NCBI GenBank assembly: GCA_021772565.1
Contig: JAJFLR010000001.1
Coordinates: forward strand, 1-15,532
Length of the DNA: 15,532 nt
From: Opitutales bacterium
GTDB lineage: Bacteria > Verrucomicrobiota > Verrucomicrobiia > Opitutales > JAJFLR01
Direction: 5' to 3'
The notes below the pieces were generated by a model that saw only the letters and a list, made by a program, of their open reading frames with translations, did no database searches and was not told the origin of the DNA. Position numbers and translations under genes: made by a program. Shown in pieces: positions 1 to 15,532 of the stretch. Numbering within the stretch: position 1 is the first letter of the stretch; every line of letters starts with the position of its first letter.

Positions 1-603
1 ATGAAGGCGATTGAGGCAATGGAAGTGTTACCCAAATTTCGCGGAATATTGGTGCATGATTGCTGGCAAACCTATTTTCGGCTCGATTGCGAACATAGTC
101 TGTGCAATGCTCATCTGATCCGCGAGTTGATCTTTCAGAAAGAAGAATGTCAGCAAAAATGGGCAGCGAAAATGGAAACGTTATTGTGGCAGGCATACGA
201 ACATCCGGATAAGAAAAGTTTAAAAAGATGGCAAATACAATATAGTAAAATAGTAAAAGCCGGGTATAAAGAAAACCCATATAAACCACCGCCGAGGAGA
301 AAAGGTCAACGAGGTCGAATAAAAAAACCGGAAGTATTGAATTTGTTAGACCGATTTGAAAAACATCGAGAAAGTGTGTTGAGATTTATCGAAAACACCG
401 AAGTGCCGTTCACCAATAATCAAGCAGAACGAGATATACGAATGGTGAAAGTAAAACAGAAAATATCGGGGTGTTTCCGCAGTTGGGAAGGGGCACGCAT
501 ATTCGCCCGGAATCGATCTTATATCTCAACAGCCATCAAACAAGGCCATCGAGTTTTTGATGCACTATTAAGTGCAGTCTCAGGTAATCCGTGCTTTTGT
601 TGA
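1..603 (+). mobile_element. IS66-family transposase, C-terminal ~200 aa (5'-truncated by window edge)
   Basis: The translation contains the IS66 DDE C-terminal signature 'FTNNQAERDIRMVKVKQKISGCFRSWEGARIFARNRSYISTAIKQG' (compare the IS66 consensus TNNxAERxIRxxxxxRKNWLFxGSxxGxxxAxIYSLIxTCKxNG). Upstream it has 'CNAHLIRELIF', which resembles the IS66 'CWAHxRRKF' motif. The ORF runs into position 1, and the Met at position 1 is almost certainly an internal residue. Confidence 0.65.
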
Positions 604-1020
604 TGAAATACACGACTTGCTAACCGACTCTGATAACAGCGACATTTATCATTCTAAACGTAATCGTAAACCGAGAATGATTACGAAATAACAGGAATTG
701 AAAACCGTGTTTTTTCTTGCTTCTTAATCAATATGCTACTGATATCTGCTACCTTACCTCTTCGACGTAGGTAGTTACAAAAATTCTATATATACCTTAA
801 ACAACTGAATTTTGGATTTTCTAATACTGAACAATATGGGGATAAAAGTTTGTCTTCACATAATGTAATACGACACTACTATTCATGACTTAGTCATTAT
901 TCTAAAACAATTACCATAAATGTTTTCGTTTATAGCAAAAATCAATAGTAACGTCGTAAAGAATATGACTGAAAACAATATGCTAAAAAAAATAGATTAC
1001 CAAATCCTGTCTTGTCAGAT

Positions 1021-1066
1021 CTCTCTACCGATTCCCAATTTATCGTGACGACATGATCGCTACCGG
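1021..1066. repeat. Solo copy of repeat module D (ctctaccgaNtcccaatttatcgtgacgacatgatcgctaccgg)
   Basis: It is near-identical to 1201-1245 (ctcgctaccgagtcccgatttattgggacgagatgatcactaccg). It is the reverse complement of 12576-12609. It has the shared 'ctaccg...cccgat/ttat...gacga...ctaccg' architecture. Confidence 0.45.
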
Positions 1067-1170
1067 AAAAATTCATCTTTAGCCAATTATCAATAAAATA
1101 GTTAATTATAGCATCTACCATAATAAATTACCGAAATAAATCAGTGTAAGAAATCAATAAACGTACTTCA

Positions 1171-1384
1171 GATAGATTGCCACACTCTGCATTCGCAGAG
1201 CTCGCTACCGAGTCCCGATTTATTGGGACGAGATGATCACTACCGAATCCGAAGGATGACACCTCAACGAGTGAAGCGAGTACCGAACGAAGTGACATCA
1301 AACATAACAGAAAACATGACAGTTCCTAGTTTTTTACTTTGTCATCGCGAGGAGCAACGCGACATCCCGACAAGTCGGGATGAC
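1171..1384. repeat. Diverged, expanded composite copy of the B-D-A repeat family (B-like head, D module, A-like tail with cccga-N4-tcggg hairpin)
   Basis: 1171-1184 'gatagattgccaca' matches the B module head 'catagattgccacatc'. 1201-1245 is module D. 1338-1353 'tttgtcatcgcgaggag' is the module A head, and it is followed by 'catcccgacaagtcgggatgac' with a perfect hairpin. The flanking 'gatgaca ... tttgtcatc' inverted pair mirrors the atgacaa/ttgtcat stem of the main array. The 69-aa ORF at 1223-1432 lies wholly inside this repeat. Confidence 0.45.
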
Positions 1385-1547
1385 TTTTTTCAGACAGAAC
1401 TTTTGCGAAATGCTAAACGAACTTTATTTTAATTTACAACCTATCGTAATGGATACAGAACATTCTATCTATTTCGGTGCCGAGTTGAAAACGACATCTA
1501 CCAATTTCTTATGGCAGATGCTATATATATAACGCAGCCTATTATTT

Positions 1548-3653
1548 CTATAAATTTTCAAGCGTCTCTATTACAATTCCTGCTGTCAAAATTTCAGGCA
1601 ATATAATTGGGTTATCCAGGTTTGGTGAATAAATAATATTAAACGGCACTGCTGACCTACCATACTTTGCTAACGCCTCAGTAATTTTTGGATCTCGATT
1701 TGTCCAATCCGCTTTTAATGTAACGATATTTTTATCTAAAAACATATCTATAACTTTTTCCGACGTAAAAACGGTTGCCTTATTTGATAGACATGTCGTG
1801 CACCAACGCGCAGTAAAATCAACATAAACAATTTTACCTTCTGCAATATTCTGATCTACTTTTTCCTGAGACCACTCTTCCCAAATTATGCCACTGTTTT
1901 CATTTTCAGGATAACCAATAAATAACGCTCCACTAAAAACCATAATACTTCCCATGACCGCCAATCGACGTATATTTAACTTACTAGCAGGAGTTGACCA
2001 GCGACCATAGATCCAGCAGGACAATCCGACTAAGACCAATGAGATAAACACTGCCAACAAACCATATTCATTTATCTGCCCCGCCAGTACCCAAATCAAT
2101 AAACCAACAGTTGCATAAATTGGAAATGCCATCAGCTGTTTAAAGGATTCCATCCACGCACCCGGCTTGGGCAGAATCTGAATGAACTTGGGAAAGACAG
2201 CAAAAAACAAATAGGGTGTCGATAATCCAAGACCAATAAATGTAAATAATACAATTGAGGTAATGGGGTCTAAAATCAAAGCTGCTCCCAAAGCTATTGA
2301 TAAAAAGGGTGCTGCACATGGTGTTGAAACTAAAGTTGCCAGAACACCTGTAAAGAAAGATGCCGATAATCCATCTCGCATAATTAAATTTCCGCCTATA
2401 CTAGTAGCCGATGTACCAACCTCAAATAATCCACTCAGGTTGAGTCCAAAAATAAAAAAGACTTGTATCAGTAAAAAAATAAATACGGGTGATTGAAGAT
2501 GATATCCCCAGCCAATTTCCTGACCTCCGGATTTTAATATTATTAATGTTCCCGCCAGCAACCAGAACGACACTAAAACACCTAGCGTGAAAATTAAACC
2601 ATGAAGCATAATTTTTGATTTCTCATCACCTCCCTGCTTTACAAAACCCATAATTTTCAATCCAAGAACAGGAAAAACACACGGCATTACATTCAGAATC
2701 AAACCACCAATATATGCAAAAATCAGAATACCTAATAATGATTTTTCAGTTGCCGTAATTTGATTGCCACTCCCTTTATCAGCAATCTTGGAAACGATAG
2801 ATTTTGGTAGTGGATCATTGGTAATTTCTGGAGAAATTTTAATTGCTACCACAGACCCATCGTCAGTCCATCCATTTTTATTGTATAAGATGCCAGGTAA
2901 AGTTTTATATTTTTTATCCTGATCAGATTTTATTAACTCCAGCAAATAACCATTATCTGATTTTATTAATTTTTGCTGGGCATTTGGATCAATAAGTGGA
3001 TATTCAGAAAAGAAATAAATTTCATTTAACTTTTCATTGGCATTTTCTAATGGTAATAGATTCAAAAAAACCTTACCTTCTTCAGCGAATGTAGAAAATT
3101 TCCAATTTGCATTTTCAACCGGCAAATTCTTGCGAGTTTGTTCAATTGAATCAGCCCACTTTCTATTTATGTTAGAATCATCATTACTAGCAGGTAATCT
3201 CAACTCAACGTCAGCTGATCCGGGAATACAGATGTTTTCACACATTAAAAAATCTACTTTCCCTTTTAGAAAATAATTTTTTCCGATCTCAAGATTATTG
3301 GGTGGTGTAATATCAATTAACAAATAAACTTCATCCTCATAACCATAATTCGTAAATTCTCCTAATTTGAAATTTTTTGGTGTAGGCCACTGAATTTGTC
3401 CGGCAGTAAATCCTTTTGGTAATTCCCAGGTAATTTTAGTTGGCAGTCCTGCATCACCCGGATTGATCCAATAGGTATGCCAATGCTCATCCATCAACAT
3501 TCTCAACGCTACGGTAAATGTTACGCCGGACAATATTGATGTCTGATCCGAAACAAGTTCGACGCTGACATGTTCCACCTTTATCGGCTTTGCTTCGATC
3601 TGGCACAGTAACGAATACAGCAATAATGTTAATATATTTAAAAATTGTTTCAC
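1548..3653 (-). CDS. DsbD-family thiol:disulfide interchange protein (protein-disulfide reductase with N-terminal periplasmic domain, polytopic membrane core and C-terminal thioredoxin domain)
   Basis: 701 aa with an N-terminal signal peptide (MKQFLNILTLLLYSLLCQIEA). There is a multi-TM central region with the two conserved membrane cysteines in 'NVMPCVFPVL' and 'STPCAAPFL' (DsbD/CcdA core). The C-terminal thioredoxin fold has 'FTARWCTTC' (CxxC). It uses a GTG start, with rc(cac) at 3651-3653. Confidence 0.85.
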   Translation of the reverse strand: MKQFLNILTLLLYSLLCQIEAKPIKVEHVSVELVSDQTSILSGVTFTVALRMLMDEHWHTYWINPGDAGLPTKITWELPKGFTAGQIQWPTPKNFKLGEFTNYGYEDEVYLLIDITPPNNLEIGKNYFLKGKVDFLMCENICIPGSADVELRLPASNDDSNINRKWADSIEQTRKNLPVENANWKFSTFAEEGKVFLNLLPLENANEKLNEIYFFSEYPLIDPNAQQKLIKSDNGYLLELIKSDQDKKYKTLPGILYNKNGWTDDGSVVAIKISPEITNDPLPKSIVSKIADKGSGNQITATEKSLLGILIFAYIGGLILNVMPCVFPVLGLKIMGFVKQGGDEKSKIMLHGLIFTLGVLVSFWLLAGTLIILKSGGQEIGWGYHLQSPVFIFLLIQVFFIFGLNLSGLFEVGTSATSIGGNLIMRDGLSASFFTGVLATLVSTPCAAPFLSIALGAALILDPITSIVLFTFIGLGLSTPYLFFAVFPKFIQILPKPGAWMESFKQLMAFPIYATVGLLIWVLAGQINEYGLLAVFISLVLVGLSCWIYGRWSTPASKLNIRRLAVMGSIMVFSGALFIGYPENENSGIIWEEWSQEKVDQNIAEGKIVYVDFTARWCTTCLSNKATVFTSEKVIDMFLDKNIVTLKADWTNRDPKITEALAKYGRSAVPFNIIYSPNLDNPIILPEILTAGIVIETLENL

Positions 3654-3770
3654 GGTCTGTTAGAGAGCTAGCACTTTAATTTATTTCTAGGTTTATTAAA
3701 ATATAAAATAGTATCAAAGAAACAAAATTGCTTTTAAAGAAAATTTTCTCATCTACTGTAATGATTAAAA

Positions 3771-5156
3771 ATGTTTAAATATTTAAAATATATTTTTCTC
3801 AGTGCCATCATTTTAGCTGGAGGATGTAAATCTACTCAAATAGTAGATGAAGAAAAGTTACCTTTTGCATTACCTGAACAGTGGGGAAATGGCAAAAATA
3901 ACGATCAAAAACAATTTTTAGATAATTGGCTAACTGATTTTAATAATCCTGCATTAGATAAACTTGTTGCTGAATCTTTAGAGAAAAATTTTGACCTTAA
4001 ATCTGCCGAAGCTAGATTAGATTCCGCCACAGCATTACTGACAATTGCAGGAGCAGACCGATTGCCTCAAATCAATGGTAGTTTAGGTGGATCGCGACAA
4101 AAAAGAACATCGACGGGTGGATTCATTATCTCAAACCCAATATCTGATAATTTTAATTTATCCGGAATTTTTACCTGGGAGCTCGATTTATGGGGACGTC
4201 TAAAAGACCGACGTGTAGCCGCATTAGCAGACTTGTTTGCTGCTAAAGAAGATTTTCAAGGTTTAAAATTATCACTGGCCGCTAACACAGCAAAATTATG
4301 GTTCGATATAATCGAAGCAGGTCAACAGCTCAAATTATCTAAAAAAACTTTAGAGAGCTTTGAATCAAACCTGAATATTCTGCAGGAACGTTTTGAGCGT
4401 GGTATTTCTGAAACTTTGGATCTAAGATTAACCCGAGCTAATGTAGCCACAGCAAAAAGTAACGTTTTCAGAAGACAGAGACTGTTAGATGAATTAGTCA
4501 GAAGTCTTGAAATATTACTTGGCCGTTACCCAAAGAATCAGTTAAATTTCAATAACGACATTCCGAAAATTAAACGAAATGTCCCGGCGGGTCTACCCAT
4601 TCAGTTATTAAAACGTCGTCCAGATATCGCTGCAGCAGAAAATCGAGTGATAGCCTCTCATAAAAGAATCAATGAATCCCGCAAAGCACTTCTACCCGGT
4701 ATTTCTTTAAATGCCTCAGGCGGTACGAGTTCCAGTAATTTATCAGATCTGCTCGATAAAAATTTCAAAGTTTGGAGTTTGGCTGGAAATGTCACACAGC
4801 CATTTTTTCAAGGGAGACGGTTAAAAGCAAATATCAAACGATCTGAAGCAGTAAAAAAAGAAGCAGTCGCAAATTTTCATAAAACTGTTTTAACCGCTTA
4901 TAGTGAAGTTGAAAATTCTTTGGCTAATGAATCATTACTTGAAAACGAAGAATCTGCATTGAAAGAAAACGTTAAAGAATCAAGAGCTGCCGAAGAATTA
5001 TCATGGGATAGATATCAATCCGGACTCACTGATATTATAACAGTACTTGAGGCACAACGTCGTTCCTTCAATGCCCAAAGCAATTTACTTCAAGTTTCGA
5101 ATTTAAGACTGCAAAACAGAGTCAATTTATATTTAGCACTCGGTGGTGGGTTTTAA
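3771..5156 (+). CDS. Efflux-transporter outer-membrane factor lipoprotein, NodT/OprM/TolC family
   Basis: 461 aa. It has a lipoprotein signal peptide with lipobox 'ILAGGC' (MFKYLKYIFLSAIILAGGCKST). Its length and two-repeat coiled/β architecture are typical of OMF proteins, and the C-terminus 'LYLALGGGF' is a characteristic NodT-family ending. It is divergent from the DsbD-like gene across a 117-bp AT-rich spacer. Confidence 0.8.
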   Translation: MFKYLKYIFLSAIILAGGCKSTQIVDEEKLPFALPEQWGNGKNNDQKQFLDNWLTDFNNPALDKLVAESLEKNFDLKSAEARLDSATALLTIAGADRLPQINGSLGGSRQKRTSTGGFIISNPISDNFNLSGIFTWELDLWGRLKDRRVAALADLFAAKEDFQGLKLSLAANTAKLWFDIIEAGQQLKLSKKTLESFESNLNILQERFERGISETLDLRLTRANVATAKSNVFRRQRLLDELVRSLEILLGRYPKNQLNFNNDIPKIKRNVPAGLPIQLLKRRPDIAAAENRVIASHKRINESRKALLPGISLNASGGTSSSNLSDLLDKNFKVWSLAGNVTQPFFQGRRLKANIKRSEAVKKEAVANFHKTVLTAYSEVENSLANESLLENEESALKENVKESRAAEELSWDRYQSGLTDIITVLEAQRRSFNAQSNLLQVSNLRLQNRVNLYLALGGGF

Positions 5157-5255
5157 ACGAAAATCCTTATATGTTTACTCACAGAATACATTGTGAATGA
5201 TTCTATATTGACTCTAGTTCACCACCCTTTATCGCTCTCTCTATATATTTAAAAA

Positions 5256-7328
5256 ATGGAAAATACCCTGCAAAAAAAAAGTAAATTAGCCGATTTTAGT
5301 CCTATCGACTTTAAGGAAGAATTAAATGAAGAACAGTATGCTGCCGTTACAGCTGAACCTGGACCGGCTTTAGTTCTGGCTGGTGCCGGATCCGGTAAAA
5401 CCAGGACACTGACTTATCGCGTAGCCTGGCTGATATCTCAAGGAGTGAGCCCGGGTGAAATTTTACTTCTGACATTTACCAATAAAGCATCTAAAGAAAT
5501 GTTGAAACGCGTTGAAGATCTGACGGGTATTGAAACCCGTTTTTTTTGGGGCGGAACGTTTCATCATATTGGGCAAAAAACAATTCGCTTTCACGGCGAA
5601 TCTATTGGCCTACAAAAAAATTATGTCATTCACGATCAAGGTGACTCTGAAGCACTACTCAGTGATGTGGTCAAATCAATCAATAGTAAATTTTTCAAAG
5701 ATAAGGCCAATCCAAAAGCACGGTTAATTCATGAAATTATCAGTTATGCTAGAAATACTAGACAAACAATTAGAGACGTTATTAATATCCGCTACTACTG
5801 GCTAGATAACCTTAAGGAGGATATAACACAATTCGCCAAATCATATCAGGAAGAAAAATTAAAAAGACAAGTCACCGACTATGACGATTTGCTGCATCAC
5901 TGGCTTGAAATTTTAAAAACTAATTCAGAAGTGGCAACCTACTATCAAAATCGATTCAAGCACATTTTAGTCGATGAATATCAAGATACAAACAAGATAC
6001 AATCTGATATCATAGATTTCTTAGGAATCAATAACCAAGTAATGGCAGTCGGTGATGACGCTCAATGTATCTATACCTGGAGAGGTGCAAGTTTTGAAAA
6101 TATAATGACATTTTCTGACCGCCACCCAAAAACAGTTATGCACAAGATTGAAACAAACTATCGCAGCACTCCAGAAATTTTGCAGTTTGCCAATAGAGTG
6201 TTAGCAACCCAACCGATCGGCACTGGTTTTAACAAAGAATTAAAATCAATTCGTCCGTCTGGATCACTGCCGTATGTTGTGCCGGTGATGGATGGAAGAA
6301 AGCAAGCTGAGTTTGTAATCAAACGTGTAGAAGGTCTGATTAATGAAGGTTACCGGATGTCAGATATTGCCATACTCTATCGAGCTCATTACCACGCGTT
6401 AGACATGCAAGTTGAACTCTCAAGATTAAGTATACCATTTGTTATCACAAGTGGTGTCAAATTTTTTGAACAAGCTCATGTTCGCGATCTTGTCGCCCAT
6501 TTAAGATTTGCCGCAAACATTAAAGATATAACGGTATTTAAAAGACTTGTTTGTCTCTTACCTAAAATTGGTGATGTCACTGCCGGGCGACTTTATAGTT
6601 TAGCAGAAAAATTCGGAGACAAAAATAACAAAACGATAATCCAGTCACTTTCTAATGAATCAGTTGTAGCAAAAGTTCCTGCAGAAGCTAAGGAAGATTG
6701 GATAGATTTAAGTTACACATTACAGGATTTAGAATTAGCGATTAACGGCCCATCAAAACCAAAGAAAGAATTATCGTTATTTGACGACGATACAGCTGAA
6801 GAAAAAGTCACAAAAATTCATACACCAGACGAAGTCGTTAAAATCGCAATCGATGGCTGGTATGGGGATTATATGCGAAATGTCTATGTTAACTGGGAAT
6901 CAAGACGAGATGACTTAGATAGCATAGTTGGCTTTGCCAGTGGTTTCGAAGACATGAATGAATTGCTTGCACAATTAATACTGCTCAATTCCGAATCGTC
7001 TGACCGCGGTGCCAATCAAAATGCAGACGCTATCCGAATGACAACTATTCATCAGGCTAAAGGGCTGGAATATCCAATAGTTTTTATAATAGGAATGGCC
7101 GAAGGATTATTCCCTCTAAAAAGAAGTATTGATAATGATGACGTCGAAGAAGAACGCAGATTATTTTACGTAGCCGTTACTCGTGCAAAAGATGAGCTCT
7201 ACATTTGTTATCCGATGATTAATACTCAAAACGGCCCATCAATAAGAATGGGACCGAGTCAGTTTCTAGAAATTCTACCGGATGACAGTTATGAAATTTT
7301 AAATGTAAGACAAACTACCAATTGGTAA
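5256..7328 (+). CDS. UvrD/PcrA/Rep-family ATP-dependent DNA helicase (superfamily 1)
   Basis: 690 aa. Walker A motif 'AGAGSGKTRTLTYRVAWLI', motif II 'VDEYQDTN', and the motifs 'NYRS' and 'TIHQAKGLEYPIVFIIG...LFYVAVTRAKDELYI' are all typical of UvrD/PcrA. Confidence 0.9.
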   Translation: MENTLQKKSKLADFSPIDFKEELNEEQYAAVTAEPGPALVLAGAGSGKTRTLTYRVAWLISQGVSPGEILLLTFTNKASKEMLKRVEDLTGIETRFFWGGTFHHIGQKTIRFHGESIGLQKNYVIHDQGDSEALLSDVVKSINSKFFKDKANPKARLIHEIISYARNTRQTIRDVINIRYYWLDNLKEDITQFAKSYQEEKLKRQVTDYDDLLHHWLEILKTNSEVATYYQNRFKHILVDEYQDTNKIQSDIIDFLGINNQVMAVGDDAQCIYTWRGASFENIMTFSDRHPKTVMHKIETNYRSTPEILQFANRVLATQPIGTGFNKELKSIRPSGSLPYVVPVMDGRKQAEFVIKRVEGLINEGYRMSDIAILYRAHYHALDMQVELSRLSIPFVITSGVKFFEQAHVRDLVAHLRFAANIKDITVFKRLVCLLPKIGDVTAGRLYSLAEKFGDKNNKTIIQSLSNESVVAKVPAEAKEDWIDLSYTLQDLELAINGPSKPKKELSLFDDDTAEEKVTKIHTPDEVVKIAIDGWYGDYMRNVYVNWESRRDDLDSIVGFASGFEDMNELLAQLILLNSESSDRGANQNADAIRMTTIHQAKGLEYPIVFIIGMAEGLFPLKRSIDNDDVEEERRLFYVAVTRAKDELYICYPMINTQNGPSIRMGPSQFLEILPDDSYEILNVRQTTNW

Positions 7329-7339
7329 ATTTTAGGTAG

Positions 7340-7361
7340 GGACGGCTGTCCCCAGCCGTCC
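7340..7361. terminator. GC-rich hairpin just after the helicase stop (ggacggct-gtcccc-agccgtcc), possible intrinsic terminator
   Basis: Perfect 8-bp stem (ggacggct / agccgtcc) with a 6-nt loop, 12 nt after the TAA at 7326-7328. It is followed by 'aaaaa' and preceded by 'ttt', so the U-tract is better for the minus strand. It is marginal as a rho-independent terminator for the helicase. Confidence 0.3.
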
Positions 7362-7419
7362 AAAAACGATTTCACAATGATGGTAATTCTACTATAAACA
7401 AATCGGAATCCATCTCTAC

Positions 7420-8066
7420 CTTGTCATCGCAAGGAGTATAAGGAGTCGACTTCGCCATAGTAACCTATGGCTACAACGGCTGGACGCGGCCATCCATCAT
7501 TTTTCTTTATTCTACATAGATTGCCACATCCTGATTTTACATCGGGATTCGCAATGACAACTACTTTGTCATCGCGAGGAGTGTAACGACGTGGCGATCC
7601 ATGATTATTCTTGTCATCGTGAGGAATGAAAATGAGCCGACTCCGCCATAGTAGCATATGGCTACGACGGCTGGACGCGGCGATCCATCACTTTTTCTTT
7701 GTTCTACATAGATTGCCACATCCCGATTTACATCGGGACTCGCAATGACAACTGTGTTTGACTTTGTCATCGCGAGGAGTGTAACGACGCGGCGATCCAT
7801 GCCTTTTCTTTATTCTACATAGATTGCCACATCCCGATTTTCATCGAGACTCGCAATGACAACCTCTTTTTCACTTTGTCATCGCGAGGAGGAAACGACG
7901 TGGCGATCCATCCATACCTTGTCATCGCGAGGAGTGAAACGACGTGGCGATCCATGCCTTTTCTTTATTCTACATAGATTGCCACATCCCGATTTACATC
8001 GGAACTCGCAATGACAACTGTGTTTGACTTTGTCATCGCGAGGAGTGTAACGACGCGGCGATCCAT
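7420..8066. repeat. Tandem composite repeat array, part 1 (modules A/B plus two A+C units), upstream flank of the GIY-YIG cassette
   Basis: Module B copies (tctacatagattgccacatcccgatttacatcgggactcgcaatgacaa) start at 7511, 7703, 7814 and 7969. Module A copies (tttgtcatcgcgaggagtg[t/a]aacgacg[c/t]ggcgatccat) lie at 7565-7602, 7763-7800, 7875-7911, 7919-7955 and 8029-8066. A+C variants with an inserted palindrome 'gccatagta(acc/gca)tatggc' lie at 7420-7496 and 7611-7688. Linkers are 'c(a/c)cttttctttRttc' (A to B) and T-rich 11-12-mers (B to A). Confidence 0.9.
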
Positions 8067-8077
8067 GATTATTAATT

Positions 8078-8374
8078 TCACAGATACCAATCTTTCGAGT
8101 AGTCTTCCCACTGATGGTTTATTTTTTCAATAAGTTTCAATTTATTTTTCCTTGATCCAGATTTAATTTGTTTCTCCCTCGATATAGCGTTATGAATATC
8201 GTGAAATACTTCAAAATATACAAGTTTTGTTAAATTATACTTTTTTGAAAAACCATCATAAGACTTATTTTTATGTTCCCACATACGTTTAATAAGACTC
8301 TTAGTAACACCAGTATATAGAGTACCATTTTTCTTATTACATATTATATAGACATAGTAATAGTGTCTTTGCAT
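8078..8374 (-). CDS. Small GIY-YIG nuclease-family protein (YhbQ/UPF0213-like, single-domain)
   Basis: 98 aa. 'YYVYIICNKKNGTLYTGVTKSLIKRMWEHK' contains the GIY-YIG motifs (YxVYII ... GTLYTGVT ... R..EH). The downstream part 'LVYFEVF...REKQIKSGSRKNKLKLI' completes the domain. The gene sits in a roughly 375-bp unique segment (8067-8440) flanked on both sides by the tandem repeat array. Confidence 0.85.
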   Translation of the reverse strand: MQRHYYYVYIICNKKNGTLYTGVTKSLIKRMWEHKNKSYDGFSKKYNLTKLVYFEVFHDIHNAISREKQIKSGSRKNKLKLIEKINHQWEDYSKDWYL

Positions 8375-8440
8375 AATTTTGGGAGAAAATTAACTTGATA
8401 ATTCCACACTTAATATTGAAATTTTTATGTCAATAAAAGT

Positions 8441-9098
8441 CTACATAGATTGCCACATCCCGATTTTACATCGGGATTCGCAATGACAATCACTTTTCCA
8501 CTTTGTCATCGCGAGGAGTGTAACGACGCGGCGATCCATCCATACCTTGTCATCGCGAGGAGTGAAACGACACGGCGATCCATCACTTTTTCTTTGTTCT
8601 ACATGGATTGCCACATCCCGATTTACATCGGGACTCGCAATGACAACCTCTTTTTCACTTTGTCATCGCGAGGAGGAAACGACGCGGCGATCCATCACTT
8701 TTCTTTATTCTACATGGATTGCCACGCCCCGATCAAACATCGGGACTCGCAATGACAATCGATTTTCCACTTTGTCATCGCGAGGAGTGAAACGACACGG
8801 CGATCCATCACTTTTTCTTTGTTCTACATAGATTGCCACATCCCGATTTACATCGAGACTCGCAATGACAATCGATTTTATTTTGTCATCGCGAGGAGTG
8901 AAACGACGCGGTGATCCATCACTTTTTCTTTGTTCTACATGGATTGCCACGCCCCGATCAAACATCGGGACTCGCAATGACAACCTCTTTTCAACTTTGT
9001 CATCGCGAGGAGTGAAACGACGCGGCGATCCATCACTTTTTCTTTATTCTACATAGATTGCCACGCCCCAATTTTACATTGGGACTCGCAATGACAAT
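8441..9098. repeat. Tandem composite repeat array, part 2 (six B copies and seven A copies), downstream flank of the GIY-YIG cassette
   Basis: B copies lie at 8441-8490, 8599-8647, 8710-8759, 8824-8872, 8935-8983 and 9049-9098. A copies lie at 8503-8540, 8548-8584, 8660-8696, 8772-8809, 8883-8920 and 8997-9034. B-to-B spacing is 111 or 114 nt for simple units. Variants of the B hairpin are cccgat-ttac-atcggg, cccgat-caaac-atcggg and cccaat-ttttac-attggg. Confidence 0.9.
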
Positions 9099-9179
9099 TT
9101 GAATTTATAAAAAATACTGACTGGTAAAATTCGTCATTACTCTTATAGGCTAAGAAATATAAAATAAAAACTATATCAG

Positions 9180-10172
9180 ATGCCAGATACATTAGAAAAT
9201 ATTAATCCGATTGTCATTGGTCCAAATAACAAGAATCGACCAGATAAACTCTCCCCTATTCAGGAAGAAATTATCGCACTTAAGAAAAAACGTAATGCTG
9301 TAATTTTGGCGCATAACTATCAAGTCGATTCTATTCAAGAAATTGCCGATTACGTTGGAGATTCATTGGGTCTCTCATATAAAGCTGCTGAAACTGAAGC
9401 TGATGTTATTTTATTTTGCGGTGTCCACTTTATGGCTGAAACGGCAAAAATTGTTAACCCAAACAAAACAGTTTTACTACCAGACTTGAATGCTGGCTGC
9501 TCTCTATCCGATTCTTGTCCGGCAGAAAAACTAGCAGACTATAAAGAAAAAAATCCTGATGTCTATGTTGTCGCTTACATCAACTGTTCAGCCGCAGTTA
9601 AAGCACTCAGCGATGTAATTTGCACTAGCGGCAATGCAATTAAAATAGTCGAAAAGATTCCAGAAGATAGAGAAATTTTATTTGTTCCCGACCAAAATCT
9701 TGGACAATGGGTTTCTAAAGTCACTGGCAGAAAAATGTTGCTCTGGCCAGGCAGTTGTTACGCGCATGTGTTATTTACTGTAAGAGCAATTGACAGAATT
9801 AAAATGGATTTCCCCAACGCACCTATTGTAGCACATCCAGAATGCATCGAAGCTGTGCGCGATATTGCCGATGAAGTTTGCAGCACTGAAAAAATGATAA
9901 GCTTTGCAATAAATCATGCTGCCAATGAAATTATCGTAGTCACAGAATCCGGCATGCTACATCGACTACGACGTGAAGTTCCAGATAAAACTTTTATTGC
10001 CGGACCAACTGAAAATTGTGCCTGCAATGATTGTCGATTTATGAAAATGAACACCATCGAAAAAACGCGTGACGCCCTACTTCATCTCGAGCCAAAAATT
10101 GAACTTGATGAAAATTTGAGAATTAATGCCTACACCCCGATCAAAAAAATGTTAGACTGGAGTAGAAGTTAA
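9180..10172 (+). CDS. nadA: Quinolinate synthase A (NAD biosynthesis)
   Basis: 330 aa. It has the NadA hallmarks 'ILAHNYQ', 'ILFCGVHFMAETAKI' and 'VVAYINCSAAVKA', and three conserved Cys (Fe-S cluster ligands) at roughly 80, 106 and 127 residue spacing. The length is typical for NadA. Confidence 0.9.
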   Translation: MPDTLENINPIVIGPNNKNRPDKLSPIQEEIIALKKKRNAVILAHNYQVDSIQEIADYVGDSLGLSYKAAETEADVILFCGVHFMAETAKIVNPNKTVLLPDLNAGCSLSDSCPAEKLADYKEKNPDVYVVAYINCSAAVKALSDVICTSGNAIKIVEKIPEDREILFVPDQNLGQWVSKVTGRKMLLWPGSCYAHVLFTVRAIDRIKMDFPNAPIVAHPECIEAVRDIADEVCSTEKMISFAINHAANEIIVVTESGMLHRLRREVPDKTFIAGPTENCACNDCRFMKMNTIEKTRDALLHLEPKIELDENLRINAYTPIKKMLDWSRS

Positions 10173-10228
10173 CCACTCACATATTTTAAAAATTAGATTA
10201 AACATAAACATCAAAAAGGAGAATACAA

Positions 10229-11515
10229 ATGTCTGAAAATTATAAATTTGAAACTAAATGCCTGCATGTTGGACACCAACCGGATCCTTCAACTAATGCT
10301 CGTGGTGTACCTGTGAACCGTACTTCCTCCTACGTCTTTAATAACACAGAACACGCAGCCAATCTGTTTGCTCTAAAAGAATTTGGCAACATCTACACAC
10401 GCTTGATGAATCCGACACATGATACATTAGAGCAACGAGTCGCTTCATTGGAAGGGGGTTGTGCCGGCTTAGCTTTTTCATCAGGTACTGCTGCCATTTA
10501 TAATTCGATAATTAATATCTGTTCTATGGGAGATGAGATTGTTTCAGCAAACAATCTTTACGGAGGAACCTATACGATGTTTGATTCGATACTTCCGCAA
10601 TTCGGTATTAAAGCAAATTTTGTCGATCCGCGAGATACATCAAGTTTTGAATCTGCGATAACTGATAAAACAAGGGCGATTTTTATCGAGACCATTGGTA
10701 ATCCAGTTTTGGAGTTTACTGATATCAGTGCCGTTTCAGAAATTGCCAAGAAACACAAAATTCCACTTATTGTTGATGCCACATTCACCACACCGTATCT
10801 ATTGAAAACTATTGAGCACGGTGCTAACATAGTTATCAATTCATTAACAAAATGGATGGGCGGTCATGGGACTGGTATTGGTGGAATCGTTATTGATGCC
10901 GGAAATTTTGATTGGACAGATTCTAAATTCAAACTCTTCAATGAACCTGATGCAAGTTATCATGGATTACGTTATGCGCATGATTTAGGAGAACTGAATC
11001 ATTTGGCATTTATATTAAGGCTTCGATTAGTACCTCTGCGTAATATCGGTTCCTGTATCTCACCGGATAACGCCTGGATGTTTCTACAGGGATTGGAAAC
11101 TTTACCTTTACGTATGCAACGCCATTGTGAAAATGCCGCCAAAGTTGCAGCTCATTTGGAAAGTCATGCACAAGTCGATTGGGTACGTTATCCCGGATTG
11201 AAAAATGATCCAACTCACGAAGTTGCGAGCAAATATTTAAAAAATGGTTTTGGCAGTATGGTTGTTTTTGGCATAAAAGGTGGATACGATGCCGGGGTAA
11301 AATTTGTCGACAATCTAAAATTATTTTCTCACTTGGCCAACGTTGGTGATGCAAAAAGTTTAGTGCTGCATCCATCGAGCACATCACATTCGCAACTGTC
11401 AGAGGAGCAACAAGCATCGAGTGGCTTAACACCTGACCTCGTTAGACTATCTGTCGGCATCGAACATATCGACGATATAATTGAGGATTTAGAATTTGGT
11501 TTTTCACTGGGTTAG
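10229..11515 (+). CDS. metY: O-acetylhomoserine aminocarboxypropyltransferase / O-acetylhomoserine sulfhydrylase (PLP-dependent, Cys/Met metabolism family)
   Basis: 428 aa. The PLP-lysine motif 'NSLTKWMGGHGT' and 'GNIYTRLMNPT' are conserved in MetY/MET17-type enzymes, and the C-terminal 'GDAKSLVLHPSSTSHSQL' is typical. There is a strong SD sequence (aaaaaggag) 8 nt upstream of the ATG. Confidence 0.9.
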   Translation: MSENYKFETKCLHVGHQPDPSTNARGVPVNRTSSYVFNNTEHAANLFALKEFGNIYTRLMNPTHDTLEQRVASLEGGCAGLAFSSGTAAIYNSIINICSMGDEIVSANNLYGGTYTMFDSILPQFGIKANFVDPRDTSSFESAITDKTRAIFIETIGNPVLEFTDISAVSEIAKKHKIPLIVDATFTTPYLLKTIEHGANIVINSLTKWMGGHGTGIGGIVIDAGNFDWTDSKFKLFNEPDASYHGLRYAHDLGELNHLAFILRLRLVPLRNIGSCISPDNAWMFLQGLETLPLRMQRHCENAAKVAAHLESHAQVDWVRYPGLKNDPTHEVASKYLKNGFGSMVVFGIKGGYDAGVKFVDNLKLFSHLANVGDAKSLVLHPSSTSHSQLSEEQQASSGLTPDLVRLSVGIEHIDDIIEDLEFGFSLG

Positions 11516-11522
11516 CTCCAGA

Positions 11523-11540
11523 GTCCCGATATATCGGGAC
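11523..11540. terminator. Perfect hairpin gtcccgat-at-atcgggac between convergent metY and PEP-CTERM genes (terminator and/or minimal repeat-family member)
   Basis: The 8-bp stem uses the same cccgat/atcggg arms as the module B hairpin of the 7420-9098 array. It lies 8 nt after the metY stop, and no clean U-tract follows. Confidence 0.35.
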
Positions 11541-11594
11541 AACATAATCACGATTAAAAGTATAACGCTTTTATGATTCAGAAATTTTTGAAAA

Positions 11595-12281
11595 CTAAGA
11601 TGTTTTTCTCAGCTTACGGTAGTATGCTAAACCTAACGCACCGAGTCCAAGTGCAGCAGCATATGCGGCTGGCTCAGGAACAGTTGTAACAACAATCGGT
11701 GTATTCAGATTTGTTTCGAGTTTACCACCAAGAATAGTCATAGTTTTTTCAGATACATTCCAATCAACATTTATGAACCCGAACTGACTGTCTCCTGTTT
11801 GAAATCCAATTGCACCAATTCGATTTGTTATCCAATCCCCAACAGCTCCACCATAATAACTATGAAATAATCGACCGTTTGTTGAAGCTGAATTGAGATT
11901 ACCATTTACAATAGATCCATAACTATAGTAATTCGCATTGGATCCAGTAGTCATAATGTTAGATCCACTTCCACCAAAAACTATAACAAGTTGGTCACCG
12001 GACAATACTCGCCCCCAAAATGTCAAATAGTCGTTAGAATCAGATGAAGCATCCAAGCTATATCCTGCTGTTTGCCCGCCAGTTCCACTACCAGTAGAAA
12101 TAAACGTAGTGCCAATTAGACTTGCAAGATTAAGATCAATAACTGCAGCTGAGGATATTACAGTCTGTCCAAGAATTCCCGATAACAGGGCCAGACTCGA
12201 CGAACTAATTGAATAACTTTGTATTCTATTTTTAATTGGGGTTAGATGTCTTGATATACTTGTCGTTAGTTTAGTACTCAT
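11595..12281 (-). CDS. PEP-CTERM sorting-domain protein (putative exosortase substrate), Gly/Ser/Thr-rich secreted protein
   Basis: The C-terminus 'TVPEPAAYAAALGLGALGLAYYRKLRKTS' is the VPEP motif plus a hydrophobic helix plus a basic cluster, which is the canonical PEP-CTERM anchor. The body is low-complexity and G/S/T/N-rich. The annotated ATG at 12281 has no SD, and the hydrophobic signal-like segment starts around residue 27, so the true start may differ. Confidence 0.75.
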   Translation of the reverse strand: MSTKLTTSISRHLTPIKNRIQSYSISSSSLALLSGILGQTVISSAAVIDLNLASLIGTTFISTGSGTGGQTAGYSLDASSDSNDYLTFWGRVLSGDQLVIVFGGSGSNIMTTGSNANYYSYGSIVNGNLNSASTNGRLFHSYYGGAVGDWITNRIGAIGFQTGDSQFGFINVDWNVSEKTMTILGGKLETNLNTPIVVTTVPEPAAYAAALGLGALGLAYYRKLRKTS

Positions 12282-12467
12282 TATTATTTATTTGGTTTTG
12301 GTATTTATGTAAAATATTCTAATGTAGTAATTATTGAAAAAATGCACCAATATTTAAATTTTAATATATTATTTATGTCAAGTCTGTTTAATATTATTTA
12401 TAGCAATTGCCAAAATGTATTCGTTTATATTGAGCATAGACTAACGTTCTGTTCGAATTAAATAGTC

Positions 12468-12625
12468 ATGGATCGCTTTGTCCAGCCGTCGTAGCCATTG
12501 GCTACTATGGCGGAGTCGGTTCACGTTGTTCCTCACGATGACAAAGTTGTGCGATTGTCATGTTTTCTCGTGATCATGTCGTCCCGATAAATCGGCACTC
12601 GGTAGCGAGACCTGCTGAGGCAGGT
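12468..12625. repeat. Inverted solo copy of array modules (rc of C, rc of A-head, rc of B-end, rc of D) followed by a short palindrome
   Basis: rc(12468-12519) = ccgactccgccatagtagccaatggctacgacggctggacaaagcgatccat, which matches the A+C unit at 7636-7688. rc(12530-12546) = ctttgtcatcgtgaggaa, which matches 7610-7626. 12553-12562 'cgattgtcat' is the rc of the B-end/linker 'atgacaatcg'. rc(12576-12609) = ctcgctaccgagtgccgatttatcgggacgacatg, which is module D (compare 1201-1245). 12610-12625 'acctgctgaggcaggt' is a perfect hairpin. Confidence 0.6.
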
Positions 12626-12834
12626 CGCGGTAATCTATCTAATTTTTGATTTGAGTTGATATTTGATTACAGTATAATCATTCAGTTTATTACTTCTGAT
12701 ATTTAAAATATACGTATGCATTTATGGCAATCGCTATAGTTTGAAAATTTATAAAAAGATAACCCGTCTGAGAATATATTTTTGATATCATACCTCAGAA
12801 GGGTTCTTTTTTTTTGATCTGAAAACATTCATAA

Positions 12835-13938
12835 TCAGATCAGTTTTGTGATACGATCGGTTAAGCCTTGCTCACCGAGAACCACGTTTAGTTTACTTGT
12901 TTTAGCTACGGTTTCCAGAACTTCCAACTCACGAAGTTTCATGAGAACAGGATTTGCCTCTATTAACTTGGCAGTGTTCATTTGAGAACGCATAGCTGCA
13001 GTTTCTTCACGACGTTTGATGACATTTGCTTCAGATGCTTTTTGAGCTTCCATAACTTTATTCATCAATTCCTTCATGTCTCCAGGAAGAATAATATCGC
13101 GAATGCCCAGCGCGATAATTTCAACACCGAAGCCTTTTGCTACTGCATCGATATTACGCTTGGTATATTTCGCCAGATCTTCTTTGTCTGCAAGTAGTCC
13201 ATCGAGTACTCGAGTTCCTACTTCAGAACGAAGAGTCAGCTGTGCTTCACGGTACAGCGCTTGAGCAATATCCATAACCTTATCAACAGACTTTTGAGGA
13301 TCAGTGATACGGTAAGTCAGGAGTGCATTCAAACGCATAGTTACTTTATCCTGGGTCATAATTTCCTGACCGGAAATATCCATAATCTGCTCACGTTGAT
13401 CAACCAAGTAAATTTTTACTTTGGCTGCATCTTTCCAAAATGCATTTTTTCCGGAAGGAAGAATTTCGGTGAATTCACCATTGACGTATAGAACGCCAAC
13501 TTTTCCATCAGGAATATCAGTAATATTTAGAAAGACATTCGCAGAAACATTTTTTAGAATAGTTTCCAGGTCTTGCCGTTTTAGTTGTAGTGCATCAGTT
13601 TTAATAACTGTGACATCAACCTTACGGAATTTTGTCCATAGACCATACAGGCCAGGACCCACGATTTTTTCGAAACGATTGTCCACCCAGACAAGAGCAC
13701 GTTCATTATCCTTTAGGTCAATGAACTTTGCTTTGTCGTTCAACAATACGCTACGAGCGAGCTGATCGATTTCTACAGAATCGATCCAGGGACTTCGCTG
13801 GCTAACAACTTCCACTTTAACTTTACTGCGGAAGCTGAAGAACCAACGCCATCCTTCGCTTACAAGATCGATCAATTTACCATTCTTGTAAACCAGCCCG
13901 AACTCATCATATTTAATATATTTTCGGAATAGGATCAT
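12835..13938 (-). CDS. SPFH/band-7 domain protein (stomatin/prohibitin/HflC-like), apparently without N-terminal membrane anchor
   Basis: 367 aa. The central region 'QDKVTMRLNALLTYRITDPQKSVDKV...REAQLTLRSEVGTRVLDGLLADKEDL...GVEIIALGIRDIILPGDMKELMNKVMEAQKASEA' matches the SPFH core plus a C-terminal coiled-coil. There is a strong SD sequence (aaggag) upstream. No hydrophobic TM segment is present in the first 60 residues. Confidence 0.8.
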   Translation of the reverse strand: MILFRKYIKYDEFGLVYKNGKLIDLVSEGWRWFFSFRSKVKVEVVSQRSPWIDSVEIDQLARSVLLNDKAKFIDLKDNERALVWVDNRFEKIVGPGLYGLWTKFRKVDVTVIKTDALQLKRQDLETILKNVSANVFLNITDIPDGKVGVLYVNGEFTEILPSGKNAFWKDAAKVKIYLVDQREQIMDISGQEIMTQDKVTMRLNALLTYRITDPQKSVDKVMDIAQALYREAQLTLRSEVGTRVLDGLLADKEDLAKYTKRNIDAVAKGFGVEIIALGIRDIILPGDMKELMNKVMEAQKASEANVIKRREETAAMRSQMNTAKLIEANPVLMKLRELEVLETVAKTSKLNVVLGEQGLTDRITKLI

Positions 13939-14306
13939 TTTTTCTCCTTGGTTTTAGTTTATGTTGTAGTTCACACCTCATTATTAAGATGCGAAAGTAT
14001 TAAAAGAGTGATCCTCGGGAAGCATTCGAGACCTTGATCCCATCAATATTACGGAATCATTTTTTAGAAAAGTATCAGCTTTGGTTTTTGAAAGGATAGA
14101 AATACAAAATTGTCTAAACAGTTTTTGTTTTCAATCGAACCTATTACGATTTCAATAATCGAATTAGTAATAGCAATCAATGCGCAAGCTTCTACCAAAC
14201 GGTATCCAAATGATTCTGGTAAGTTTGATGTTGTAATCGATATAAAATCGATTGACAGATCTCAGTAACGTTAACTTCCCTTGGATCGTATTTGAGCCTG
14301 CAAAGC

Positions 14307-14331
14307 AGGCAGTTAAGGGATTTGAACCCTC
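14307..14331 (-). other. Isolated tRNA 3' fragment (T-arm plus acceptor 3' strand, GAGGG-TTCAAAT-CCCTT-AACTGCC-T) with no matching 5' half
   Basis: The minus-strand sense sequence contains a canonical T-loop TTCAAAT with a 5-bp stem and a 7-nt acceptor strand. No complementary 5' acceptor (GGCAGTT) is found upstream. It is followed by the hairpin gcctgctttgcaggc. Confidence 0.4.
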
Positions 14332-14352
14332 GGTTTTCCACTTTTACCTTAG

Positions 14353-14424
14353 TCGGATACACGGGATTCGAACCCGCCACAGCTTGATTCTAAGTCAAGT
14401 GCTCTACCACTGAGCTAATATCGC
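14353..14424 (-). tRNA. tRNA-like gene, anticodon UAG, class-I (short variable arm). Acceptor stem has 2 terminal mismatches, so it is a possible pseudogene or atypical tRNA
   Basis: Minus-strand sense: GCGATAT-TA-GCTC-AGTGGTA-GAGC-A-CTTGA-CTTAGAA-TCAAG-CTGTG-GCGGG-TTCGAAT-CCCGT-GTATCCG-A. The D-, anticodon- and T-arms are canonical (T-loop TTCGAAT, U33, A37). In the acceptor stem, pairs 3-7 are fine but 1-72 is G/G and 2-71 is C/C. Confidence 0.5.
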
Positions 14425-14821
14425 GTGTTTTCACGATGCTTTCGATGCCATTGACAGAATACAATAACATAACGGAATACTCAAAACGAATTTCCGACAT
14501 ATTGCACTGTTGGACGGCAACATGAAATTGTACTCCGACCCTTACCGTCACATATTACCCGGATTATGCATTAGGTTAGATGTTTAGTTTGTGAAATTAA
14601 TGACAAAGGAGCGTATTCTAATACGTGACTGCAGTCCTTGATTGAAGCACACTGAAAATGTAGCCAAAACGTTTTTCAAAAATTTTAATTTTTGTTTTCT
14701 ATATACTATTAGAAAACATTCTGAATAATGAACAATTACAGAATAATTTTGAAAAACGTGGTGCAGAATTCGGGTTGATAACGTGGTGTGCCAACCCTAA
14801 CACTACCGGAGCAAAAATATT

Positions 14822-14891
14822 TGGAATGGAAGGATTCGAACCTGGGATTAAAGATTAACAATCTCCTGTGTTACCACTACACCATCTTGCT
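14822..14891 (-). pseudogene. tRNA-Asn(GUU)-like gene with 3' end (T-stem 3' strand plus acceptor) replaced by unrelated sequence ending CCA
   Basis: Minus-strand sense: AGCAAGA-TG-GTGT-AGTGGTA-ACAC-A-GGAGA-TTGTTAA-TCTTT-AATC-CCAGG-TTCGAAT-CCTTCCATTCCA. The D-arm and anticodon arm (anticodon GUU) are good. T-stem 5' CCAGG has no partner (CCTTC), and the 3' tail does not pair with the 5' acceptor AGCAAGA. Confidence 0.45.
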
Positions 14892-14901
14892 AAAATAAAT
14901 T

Positions 14902-14975
14902 TAACCGAGGAGGGATTCGAACCCCCATCAAACTGTTTCTAAAACAGTCGCCTTTATCCGTTGGGCTACTCGGCT
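14902..14975 (-). tRNA. tRNA, anticodon UAG, class-I fold (5-nt variable loop), identity uncertain (nominally Leu by anticodon)
   Basis: Minus-strand sense: AGCCGAG-TA-GCCC-AACGGATAA-AGGC-G-ACTGT-TTTAGAA-ACAGT-TTGAT-GGGGG-TTCGAAT-CCCTC-CTCGGTT-A. All four stems pair (7/7 acceptor including one G·U, 5/5 anticodon stem, 5/5 T-stem including one G·U). The T-loop is TTCGAAT, with U33 and A37. It is 74 nt and CCA is not encoded. Confidence 0.65.
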
Positions 14976-15121
14976 GAAAATTGGTTGGCTAGCGACAATT
15001 AGAACTCCCTATTAACGACAATTAAAAATCCCTACCATTGTTTTGTCAAAAAGCCTGGAGCTTTTTGGCGGAACGTAATCAGAGTTAAGGGATGATATCT
15101 CATCAACAATACCGAAAAATT

Positions 15122-15532
15122 ATGAAGCATTATAATATAACTGGAAAAATCAGCACTACTGCTGTTAAAGTAGGTGTAGATATTAAAACAGCTCGAAAGT
15201 ATATTGGAGGGGCAAAGTCACCAATTGAGCTTAAGCCGCCGCGTGATTGGGTAACCCGTTCTAATCCATTCGATGGTGTTTGGCACAAGGTGCAAAGTTG
15301 GCTTGAGGTGGATCCTCAATTACAATCGACCAGTATCTTTGAGCAATTGTCTCGAGAGTTTCCAGGTCGTTTTGAGTCGGGGCAACTACGCAGTTTGCAG
15401 CGAAAGATAAAAAGATGGCGAATCGATAATGGCGTGATGCCGGCCAAGCCAATTTATTTTGAGCAGATACATCTGCCGGGTCGGCTATTGGAGTTGGATT
15501 GGTTTAGTCCAAAGAGTTTTGAGGTGAGCATT
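15122..15532 (+). mobile_element. IS21-family transposase IstA-like N-terminus (partial, runs off the 3' window edge; absent from the ORF track because there is no in-window stop)
   Basis: The reading frame from ATG 15122 is open to the window end: MKHYNITGKISTTAVKVGVDIKTARKYI...KPIYFEQIHLPGRLLELDWFSPKSFEV. It has an N-terminal HTH resembling IstA 'IAxxLGVSRNTVRKYL'. The segment 'YFEQIHLPGRLLELDW' fits the IstA 'RFETxPGxQxQVDWG' motif that precedes the DDE core. Confidence 0.55.

Follow-up and report, generated by a model that had tools for sequence, protein, structure and literature searches.

A hairpin-repeat array around an Ssn-like GIY-YIG nuclease gene from an Opitutales bacterium: a probable variant of the Ssn/SRM system

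Introduction

As far as is known, no site-specific nucleases other than the Ssn family are restricted to the cutting of single-stranded DNA (ssDNA). SsnA of Neisseria meningitidis, a 94-aa single-domain GIY-YIG protein, binds the hairpin repeat NTS (CGTCATTCCCGCGMAVGCGGGAATCYRG) as ssDNA only and on one strand only, cuts upstream of it, and is inactive on double-stranded DNA and on RNA (Chenal et al., Nat Commun 2025, PMC11893778). Across phyla, Ssn-related motifs (SRM) lie beside the Ssn homologues, with at least one nearby in 71% of cases and motifs on both sides in 42%, and the authors liken the gene between inverted elements to an insertion sequence (PMC11893778). Here, we describe a locus of related build in a 15,532-nt stretch of DNA from an Opitutales bacterium (assembly GCA_021772565.1, contig JAJFLR010000001.1, positions 1 to 15,532), called the window below; it makes up an entire NCBI contig. 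The non-coding region 7420-9100 of the window is packed with two alternating repeat modules, B (10 copies) and A (13 copies), and this array is interrupted by a minus-strand open reading frame (ORF) for a 98-aa GIY-YIG protein (8078-8374).

Three other kinds of element bear comparison. Repetitive extragenic palindromic (REP) sequences, with their bacterial interspersed mosaic elements (BIMEs), REP doublets forming hairpins (REPINs) and REP-associated tyrosine transposases (RAYTs, of the Y1 HUH type), resemble the locus in that intergenic hairpin repeats are recognised as ssDNA, form inverted doublets and mosaic clusters, and flank the gene of their own enzyme. They differ in that the window enzyme is of the GIY-YIG and not the Y1 type, that the head of the repeats is GTCAT and not GTAG/GGAG, and that no RAYT domain is found among the scanned window ORFs. 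The Neisseria repeat dRS3 (ATTCCC-N8-GGGAAT) is the palindromic core of NTS, and the window elements have their ATTGC...GCAAT base stem at the same place after GTC; however, dRS3 is a simple palindrome of other stem sequence, whereas in the window an internal loop and a variable apical hairpin split the palindrome. Intrinsic (Rho-independent) terminators are also intergenic and have a GC-containing stem-loop, but the B stem lacks a T-tract and has conserved unpaired flanks on both sides. A literature search brought up no follow-up beyond the Ssn paper, a search for GIY-YIG proteins with intergenic or palindromic repeats or RAYTs found only organelle papers, and the repeat sequence, searched as text, matched unrelated primers only.

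Results

The nuclease gene and its flanking repeats

The array is a 1.7-kb tandem with units of about 112 nt, flanked by a UvrD-like helicase gene (5256-7328, plus strand) and nadA (9180-10172, plus strand). Twenty of its 23 repeat copies, all in 7519-9095, fit the frame GTC-ATNNN...NNNAT-C (0.9 expected in shuffles), those of module B when read on the minus strand, those of module A when read on the plus strand. The ORF that interrupts them is the only gene of its kind in the window:

8078..8374, minus strand: ssn-like gene, 98-aa single-domain GIY-YIG nuclease, within the array

The sole Pfam domain of the protein is PF01541 (residues 5-79, E 4.5e-15). There are at least 7994 homologues, mostly of 93-100 aa, and in an alignment of 25 of them Y9, Y20, G22, R30, H34, E67 and N86 are invariant; the GIY/YIG tyrosines and metal-binding or catalytic-type residues are thus conserved in the 98-aa protein. 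An exact-sequence look-up found no identical protein, NCBIfam holds no specific model for it, and the only match in a PDB sequence search was a weak one to the UPF0213 protein 1zg2. The original prediction, which dealt with the module B hairpin, overlooked this gene, the key to the identity of the repeats.

The gene lies between inverted elements. Upstream, at a distance of 74 nt and on the same strand as the gene, is the B copy 8448; downstream, 15 nt away, the A copy 8032 is on the opposite strand. Homologous loci share this layout, with an element upstream on the strand of the gene and another downstream on the opposite strand. We examined 37 homologues on viral contigs, which share 40-53% identity with the window protein. 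A GTC-AT...AT-C hairpin lies no more than 300 nt away from 21 of these; the published SRM motif accompanies 18, and the exact 28-nt NTS, one mismatch being allowed, accompanies 7. Two of the NTS-flanked proteins align near full length to the window protein, at 49% (E 9e-34) and 43% (E 2e-28) identity. Closer homologues (55-69% identity) were found at seven metagenome loci, and at all seven the gene is 3-50 nt away from GTCATTGCGAG-type elements; the same elements, at the same distance, accompany a 65%-identical pair of homologues on one 2.29-Mb contig (L125/L126). The published SRM motif occurs at none of the nine close-subfamily loci. The type of repeat thus differs with the protein subfamily, as would be expected of cognate pairs.

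Module B in the window

Module B has the form GATTGCCAC-[stem-loop]-(C/T)TCGCAATGAC, and its ten copies, which all contain the extended box CTACATRGATTGCCAC, span 7519-9095:

7519..7558, minus strand: module B, CCTGAT; the sole copy with a genuine C·A mismatch on the minus strand
7711..7749, minus strand: module B, consensus form; minimum free energy -9.7 kcal/mol as minus-strand ssDNA
7822..7860, minus strand: module B, ATCGAG; the plus-strand C·A becomes a minus-strand T·G wobble; -6.3 (minus) against -3.6 (plus) kcal/mol
7977..8015, minus strand: module B, minus-strand wobble
8448..8487, minus strand: module B, on the gene's strand, 74 nt before the ssn start codon; all-Watson-Crick 8-bp apical stem; -10.9 kcal/mol
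8606..8644, minus strand: module B, consensus form
8717..8756, minus strand: module B, loop CAAAC (plus-strand reading), closing pair G-C, stem CCCGAT/ATCGGG
8831..8869, minus strand: module B, plus-strand ATCGAG, a minus-strand wobble
8942..8981, minus strand: module B, duplicate of 8717 in a 225-nt higher-order repeat; loop CAAAC
9056..9095, minus strand: module B, compensatory G:C-to-A:T, CCCAAT...ATTGGG; -8.5 (minus) against -6.3 (plus) kcal/mol; seen in Logan contigs

On the minus strand, each element folds in two tiers: a 5' TTGTC; a basal stem of 5 bp, ATTGC/GCAAT, which is invariant across the window copies and encloses the hairpin; an internal loop, GA(G)/GTG; an apical stem of 8 bp with a loop of 4-5 nt; and a 3' C. 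The fold goes beyond chance (DNA folding z about -4; none of 200 shuffles folds equally well). The original prediction had described most copies as having the stem CCCGAT/ATCGGG with a TTAC loop. The stem is indeed the rule, and it is kept in the CAAAC-loop copies 8717 and 8942 as claimed, but TTAC closes only four of the ten copies, next to TTTAC in three, CAAAC in two and TTTC in one. The closing pair also varies (A·C in five copies, G-C in three, A-T in two).

The G:C-to-A:T change on both sides of one pair, for which the original prediction had singled out the last copy, is present in copy 9056. Two Logan contigs, from independent short-read assemblies of runs SRR15505518 and SRR15505519, are identical to the window over 9011-12476 (L001) and 9011-10818 (L002), with 0 mismatches and with this copy included. 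Equally present are the single-change copies that had been named, 7822 with ATCGAG and 7519 with CCTGAT, to which 8831 (ATCGAG) and 7977 (ATCGGA) can be added. Read on the plus strand, such changes do lose or wobble a pair; read on the minus strand, all but the one in 7519, a true mismatch, turn out to be G·T wobbles.

The window by itself is insufficient to prove selection on the stem, since it offers one compensatory event among copies that are recent tandem duplicates, and a covariation score that 27 of 500 shuffles match on the plus strand. Counted on the plus strand, 91.5% of the cells in the ten B copies pair and there is one true double-sided change; on the minus strand, 25 of 500 shuffles match the score. 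As evidence for stem selection, the covariation in the window is weak and not convincing. The choice of strand matters, as the plus-strand mismatches are almost all A·C, which become G·T on the minus strand, where 129 of 130 cells (99.2%) pair. In nine of the ten copies, ssDNA folding also gives the more stable structure for the minus strand. The plus strand, on which the earlier reading was based, is the less informative one.

Conservation of the hairpin across the family

Viral contigs were scanned by flanks alone (GATTGCCAC, 15-30 unspecified bases, CGCAATGAC), which yielded at least 120 stretches; because the search fixes the flanks, the outer helix is invariant by construction in this set. 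The inner segments, whose sequence was left free, pair all the same. The matches listed contain 131 distinct inner segments, 65% of which show five or more perfect, boundary-anchored pairs, compared with 0.4% of shuffles. The closing pair of the 131 is G-C in 87, A-T in 34 and another pair in 10. The length class of 37 nt (32 distinct sequences, gap-free alignment) allows a count by cell: among the matches listed, the share of paired cells is 98.4%, while shuffles give 77.6% and slid controls 27-52%; double-change cells number 77, compared with 21 for shuffles; and the score is reached by none of 500 shuffles. In a second set of 145 metagenome elements, likewise chosen by flanks, 59% have at least five such boundary-anchored pairs (0.3% in shuffles). 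Transition-type mismatches in the two sets, again among the matches listed, are G·T on the GTCAT strand in 26 cases and on the other strand in 9 (p = 0.006).

The pairing across the family with unrelated sequences, together with the strand bias of G·T, shows that the hairpin is a conserved structure with a free apical sequence, read on one strand. The earlier claim that co-variation marks a selected hairpin rather than junk is therefore borne out with regard to the selected structure, by the family-wide data; the single compensatory change on which it had been founded is statistically weak.

A scan of genome contigs with a pattern specific to module B matched only Treponema bryantii XBD1002 and a Faecousia MAG (metagenome-assembled genome; Bacillota). 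The box CTACATRGATTGCCAC lies at 1248-1385 in the former (L123) and at 4765-4801 in the latter (L124), beside further GTCATTGCGAG-type elements; next to those of L123 there is also a very weak GIY-YIG-like tblastn match (1548-1667, E 0.06). When the nuclease was compared by tblastn with 120 of the flank-selected viral loci, the gene was found in one only (L070), where it adjoins its repeat. Most dispersed copies are thus far from any ssn gene, as REPs are from RAYTs.

Module A, doublets and dispersed copies

Module A, GTCATCGCGAGGAG...GCGATC, has thirteen copies in the array, of which two are of a long form that contains an additional, inserted hairpin. Its internal loop reads GAGGAG and GACG(A/C)(A/G), and the apical hairpin is often missing. 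The copies, and the related elements outside the array, are:

7423..7494, plus strand: module A, long degenerate form with inserted hairpin (family D8)
7568..7599, plus strand: module A, GTCATCGC...GCGATC; plus-strand GTCAT orientation
7613..7685, plus strand: module A, long form with inserted hairpin (family D8)
7766..7797, plus strand: module A
7878..7908, plus strand: module A
7921..7952, plus strand: module A
8032..8063, plus strand: module A, on the strand opposite the gene, 15 nt past the ssn stop codon; position conserved beside homologous genes
8505..8536, plus strand: module A
8549..8580, plus strand: module A
8662..8692, plus strand: module A
8774..8805, plus strand: module A
8885..8916, plus strand: module A, outer stem broken (GTGATC)
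8999..9030, plus strand: module A, z 0.65 when folded alone
12471..12542, minus strand: dispersed long-form module A outside the array (families I1, I4); contig L001 ends within it
1341..1384: dispersed composite, module A head GTCATCGCGAGGAG... (plus strand) overlapping an NTS-like simple hairpin GTCATCCCGACTTGTCGGGATG (minus strand, 1363-1384)

The composite at 1341..1384 folds with -13.4 kcal/mol (z -5.2; family D5).

B and A stand head to head as doublets, and the same doublet occurs in at least 120 metagenome stretches, so that both element orientations are always present. In the doublet at 8606-8692, the two inverted GTCATYGCGAG heads can pair into a 13-bp stem, and the doublet as a whole folds with -19.5 kcal/mol (z -4.6). 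Doublets have been multiplied further in the window, where 8699-8849 and 8924-9074 are 93% alike in the 225-nt higher-order repeat (family D2). Alternating clusters of 6-13 elements are found on other contigs; by the same criterion, the window has 20. Contigs L001 and L002 both start inside a module A copy (9011), and L001 ends inside the dispersed long module A (12476). Such breaks inside repeats indicate that the repeats are multi-copy in the genome and fragment assemblies.

A third, longer repeat, composed of two hairpins, is present at 985-1058, 1170-1240, 11503-11558 and 12563-12645. It starts with a GATTGCCAC box (1175) and holds GTCCCGAT-TTAT-(A)TCGGGAC, the apical stem of module B. Its first hairpin varies and yet stays paired, with ACTCTGC/GCAGAG at 1184 and ACCTGC/GCAGGT at 12601-12620.

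Other features of the window

The closest named relatives of the NadA encoded next to the array are in Opitutales and Puniceicoccales MAGs, at 73-75% identity, which makes a verrucomicrobial host of the class Opitutae probable. Six longer ORFs (63-101 aa) that cross array repeats have no Pfam match. Elsewhere, gene callers turn the repeats into spurious extensions or ORFs, for example 'LLRRCAPRNDN' before P0064 (P0024 is another case), and NTS copies are mistranslated as 'VIPAKAGIQ' and 'SSFPRKRESS' in ORFs of L132 and L139.

Just past the helicase stop codon, at 7333-7360, there is a perfect 9-bp hairpin, GGACGGCTG-TCCC-CAGCCGTCC; part of it is similar to 12463-12490 (repeat family D19), and it could serve as terminator of the helicase gene or be a further piece of repeat. 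Inside the UvrD-like gene, 7125-7219 gives a sub-threshold match to Rfam n00280 (41.5 bits, gathering score 65.2), a Clostridioides difficile small RNA (sRNA) located within a helicase gene; the match is probably to conserved coding sequence and not to an RNA. The contig start cuts into the C-terminal fragment of an IS66-family transposase (1-603, PF03050, E 4e-26), which has no apparent link to the hairpin repeats. On the minus strand, ARAGORN predicts two tRNA-Leu genes with anticodon TAG, 480 nt apart, and between them lies a third, weak and truncated tRNA-like Rfam match (31.6 bits); the coordinates in this region are 14354-14423, 14829-14886 and 14902-14975.

Discussion

The locus shares with the described Ssn systems a small (about 94-98 aa) single-domain GIY-YIG gene between inverted hairpin repeats. 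It also shares the frame GTC-AT[stem]...[stem]AT-C, in which each element is oriented by a conserved non-palindromic 5' head, and the multi-copy, intergenic and clustered occurrence of the repeats; the window protein itself is 43-49% identical to proteins flanked by exact NTS. It differs in the two-tier stem, in which an internal loop separates a conserved 5-bp base from a freely varying apical hairpin, and in the second class of element, module A, which is often without the apical hairpin. Further differences are the head-to-head A/B doublets, the 1.7-kb tandem array of about 112-nt units, and the host, probably an Opitutales-like verrucomicrobium and not a proteobacterium. We assign the feature to the Ssn/SRM system: the repeat architecture is a variant and the host lineage is new, but the kind of system is not.

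The hairpin and the layout of gene and repeats are conserved, and the pairing favors one strand. With these observations in hand, we consider it probable that the array consists of hairpin repeats cognate to the central 98-aa Ssn-type nuclease and recognised by it as ssDNA. Among the roles that the original prediction had offered for the hairpin, our data favor a protein-binding site, specifically on ssDNA. The DNA cruciform that it had also offered is not favored, as the strand asymmetry counts against a symmetric structure.

We suggest the following model. Wherever DNA becomes single-stranded, as it does during replication, repair or DNA uptake, for instance, each B element would fold on its minus strand into the two-tier hairpin. 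The nuclease would bind the conserved GTCAT head together with the hairpin, on that strand only, and might nick a few bases upstream, by analogy with SsnA. Selection would then keep the stem paired, tolerate G·T and leave the apical sequence free, which would account for the compensatory change in copy 9056. Module A would be the same kind of element in opposite orientation, and head-to-head B/A doublets would have been amplified in tandem. The role of the system could lie in the control of ssDNA recombination or uptake, or in the spread of the repeats themselves.

Several points weigh against this model. The published motif, HGTCWYN(0-2)YYVSBRHN(0-5)WNVSBRGN(0-2)RNCYNB, has no match in the window, though it matches NTS and NTSvar, so that by the authors' own search rule the window elements are not SRMs. 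The Ssn placement of the protein, and with it homology to SsnA (NMV_0044) and membership of CDD cd10448, is indirect, through its NTS-flanked homologues, and is to be read as a likely one. Module A is not significantly structured when taken alone, judging by the 8999 copy, and the 13-bp stem between the heads of a doublet competes with the basal stem of B, while the apical hairpin is unaffected. The strand asymmetry in the window amounts to about 3-4 independent events against 1 and is, taken alone, only suggestive; the G·T bias, moreover, is compatible with RNA as well as with ssDNA. The copy number of the 1.7-kb array is uncertain in a short-read MAG assembly, and the element counts for the source organism are those within the 15,532-nt window. 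Finally, binding, cleavage and a biological role of the nuclease in this subfamily are what we infer; for cleavage of ssDNA on one strand, the pairing bias is the sole indirect support.

The explanation that survives best beside this model keeps the same molecular recognition and differs from it in biological role only. The doublets could be selfish, non-autonomous mobile elements similar to the REPINs of RAYTs, copied by the GIY-YIG protein or another enzyme, with the hairpin kept for the sake of spread. The likeness of a gene between inverted elements to an insertion sequence, seen by the authors of the Ssn study (PMC11893778), speaks for it, as do the many metagenome stretches with head-to-head doublets, the alternating clusters on other contigs, the dispersed copies elsewhere in the window, the long hairpin into which a doublet folds, and the Logan contigs, of which one starts and ends within repeats and the other starts at the same point of module A. 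However, none of the Ssn proteins is known to have transposition activity, the rejoining of DNA is beyond a GIY-YIG nuclease by itself, and unequal recombination alone can produce a tandem array. We regard selfish spread as possible, if on the whole unlikely.

Recognition as ssDNA by the nuclease also has to be weighed against a function of the hairpin as RNA, be it an sRNA, an mRNA-stabilising element in an untranslated region, or a terminator, on a minus-strand transcript with the nuclease gene. The pairing on the minus strand tolerates G·U as an RNA helix would, the B copies are on the strand of the ssn gene, and strong covariation is the classic signature of an RNA helix. An sRNA or terminator had accordingly been among the proposals of the original prediction, but neither finds support here. 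An Rfam scan with E up to 1 gave no match on 7400-9100. No B hairpin is followed by a T-tract, and a terminator scan of the region returned no terminator-like site at B copies and two sites in total (1.4 expected), both in module A ends; terminators and promoters taken together show no excess. Module A, the same kind of element, is on the other strand, and doublets always carry both orientations. The elements furthermore track the gene of a DNA nuclease whose characterised relatives do not bind RNA. All this makes an RNA function improbable.

For copy 9056 taken alone, the compensatory change may have a mutational origin, as a by-product of templated repair of a quasi-palindrome, of gene conversion, or of two C-to-T changes at paired CpGs. 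It is a single double change in ten recent duplicates, with a score within reach of shuffles, and both changes are CpG transitions in the two arms. The family-wide pattern is not explained by mutation alone, however, since the stem is perfect, though its sequence is unrelated, in hundreds of independent elements taken from samples that have nothing in common, the diversity of these elements argues against recent descent from a few masters, and a pairing bias towards one strand is not expected under symmetric mutation. As a general explanation, this is very improbable. Although the clusters of alternately oriented intergenic hairpin repeats recall BIMEs, a REP/BIME system with a Y1 transposase (RAYT, IS200/IS605-type), an integron attC array or a CRISPR-like array is hardly credible, because the Pfam-scanned window ORFs have no Y1 transposase, integrase or cas domain, the nuclease that consistently adjoins the repeats is GIY-YIG, the GTAG/GGAG head of REPs is absent, what would be the 'spacers' are conserved repeats too, and gene cassettes would need longer units.

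What does the variant architecture mean for the Ssn family? The published SRM motif fails to detect the GTCATTGCGAG-type elements, a large and widespread class that we find in Verrucomicrobiota, Spirochaetota and Bacillota as well as on many contigs of viral or environmental origin. As the repeat architecture of one whole subfamily is invisible to that motif, current counts of Ssn-associated repeats are underestimates. For annotation, it matters that these repeats break short-read assemblies and yield spurious ORFs. Each pair of nuclease and repeat is also a potential tool for the handling of ssDNA. The freely varying apical stem suggests that the enzyme reads shape there, and not sequence, and the elements are able to build long tandem arrays around the gene. 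As a speculation, and a rather doubtful one, the GTCATTGCGAG...GCAATC two-tier hairpins might form a very large unnamed superfamily, read by its own Ssn subfamily through the conserved base and the shape of the helix, and spreading as REPIN-like A/B doublets and tandem arrays. If this were true, it would be the first hairpin-repeat system to be propagated by a GIY-YIG enzyme instead of a Y1 transposase.

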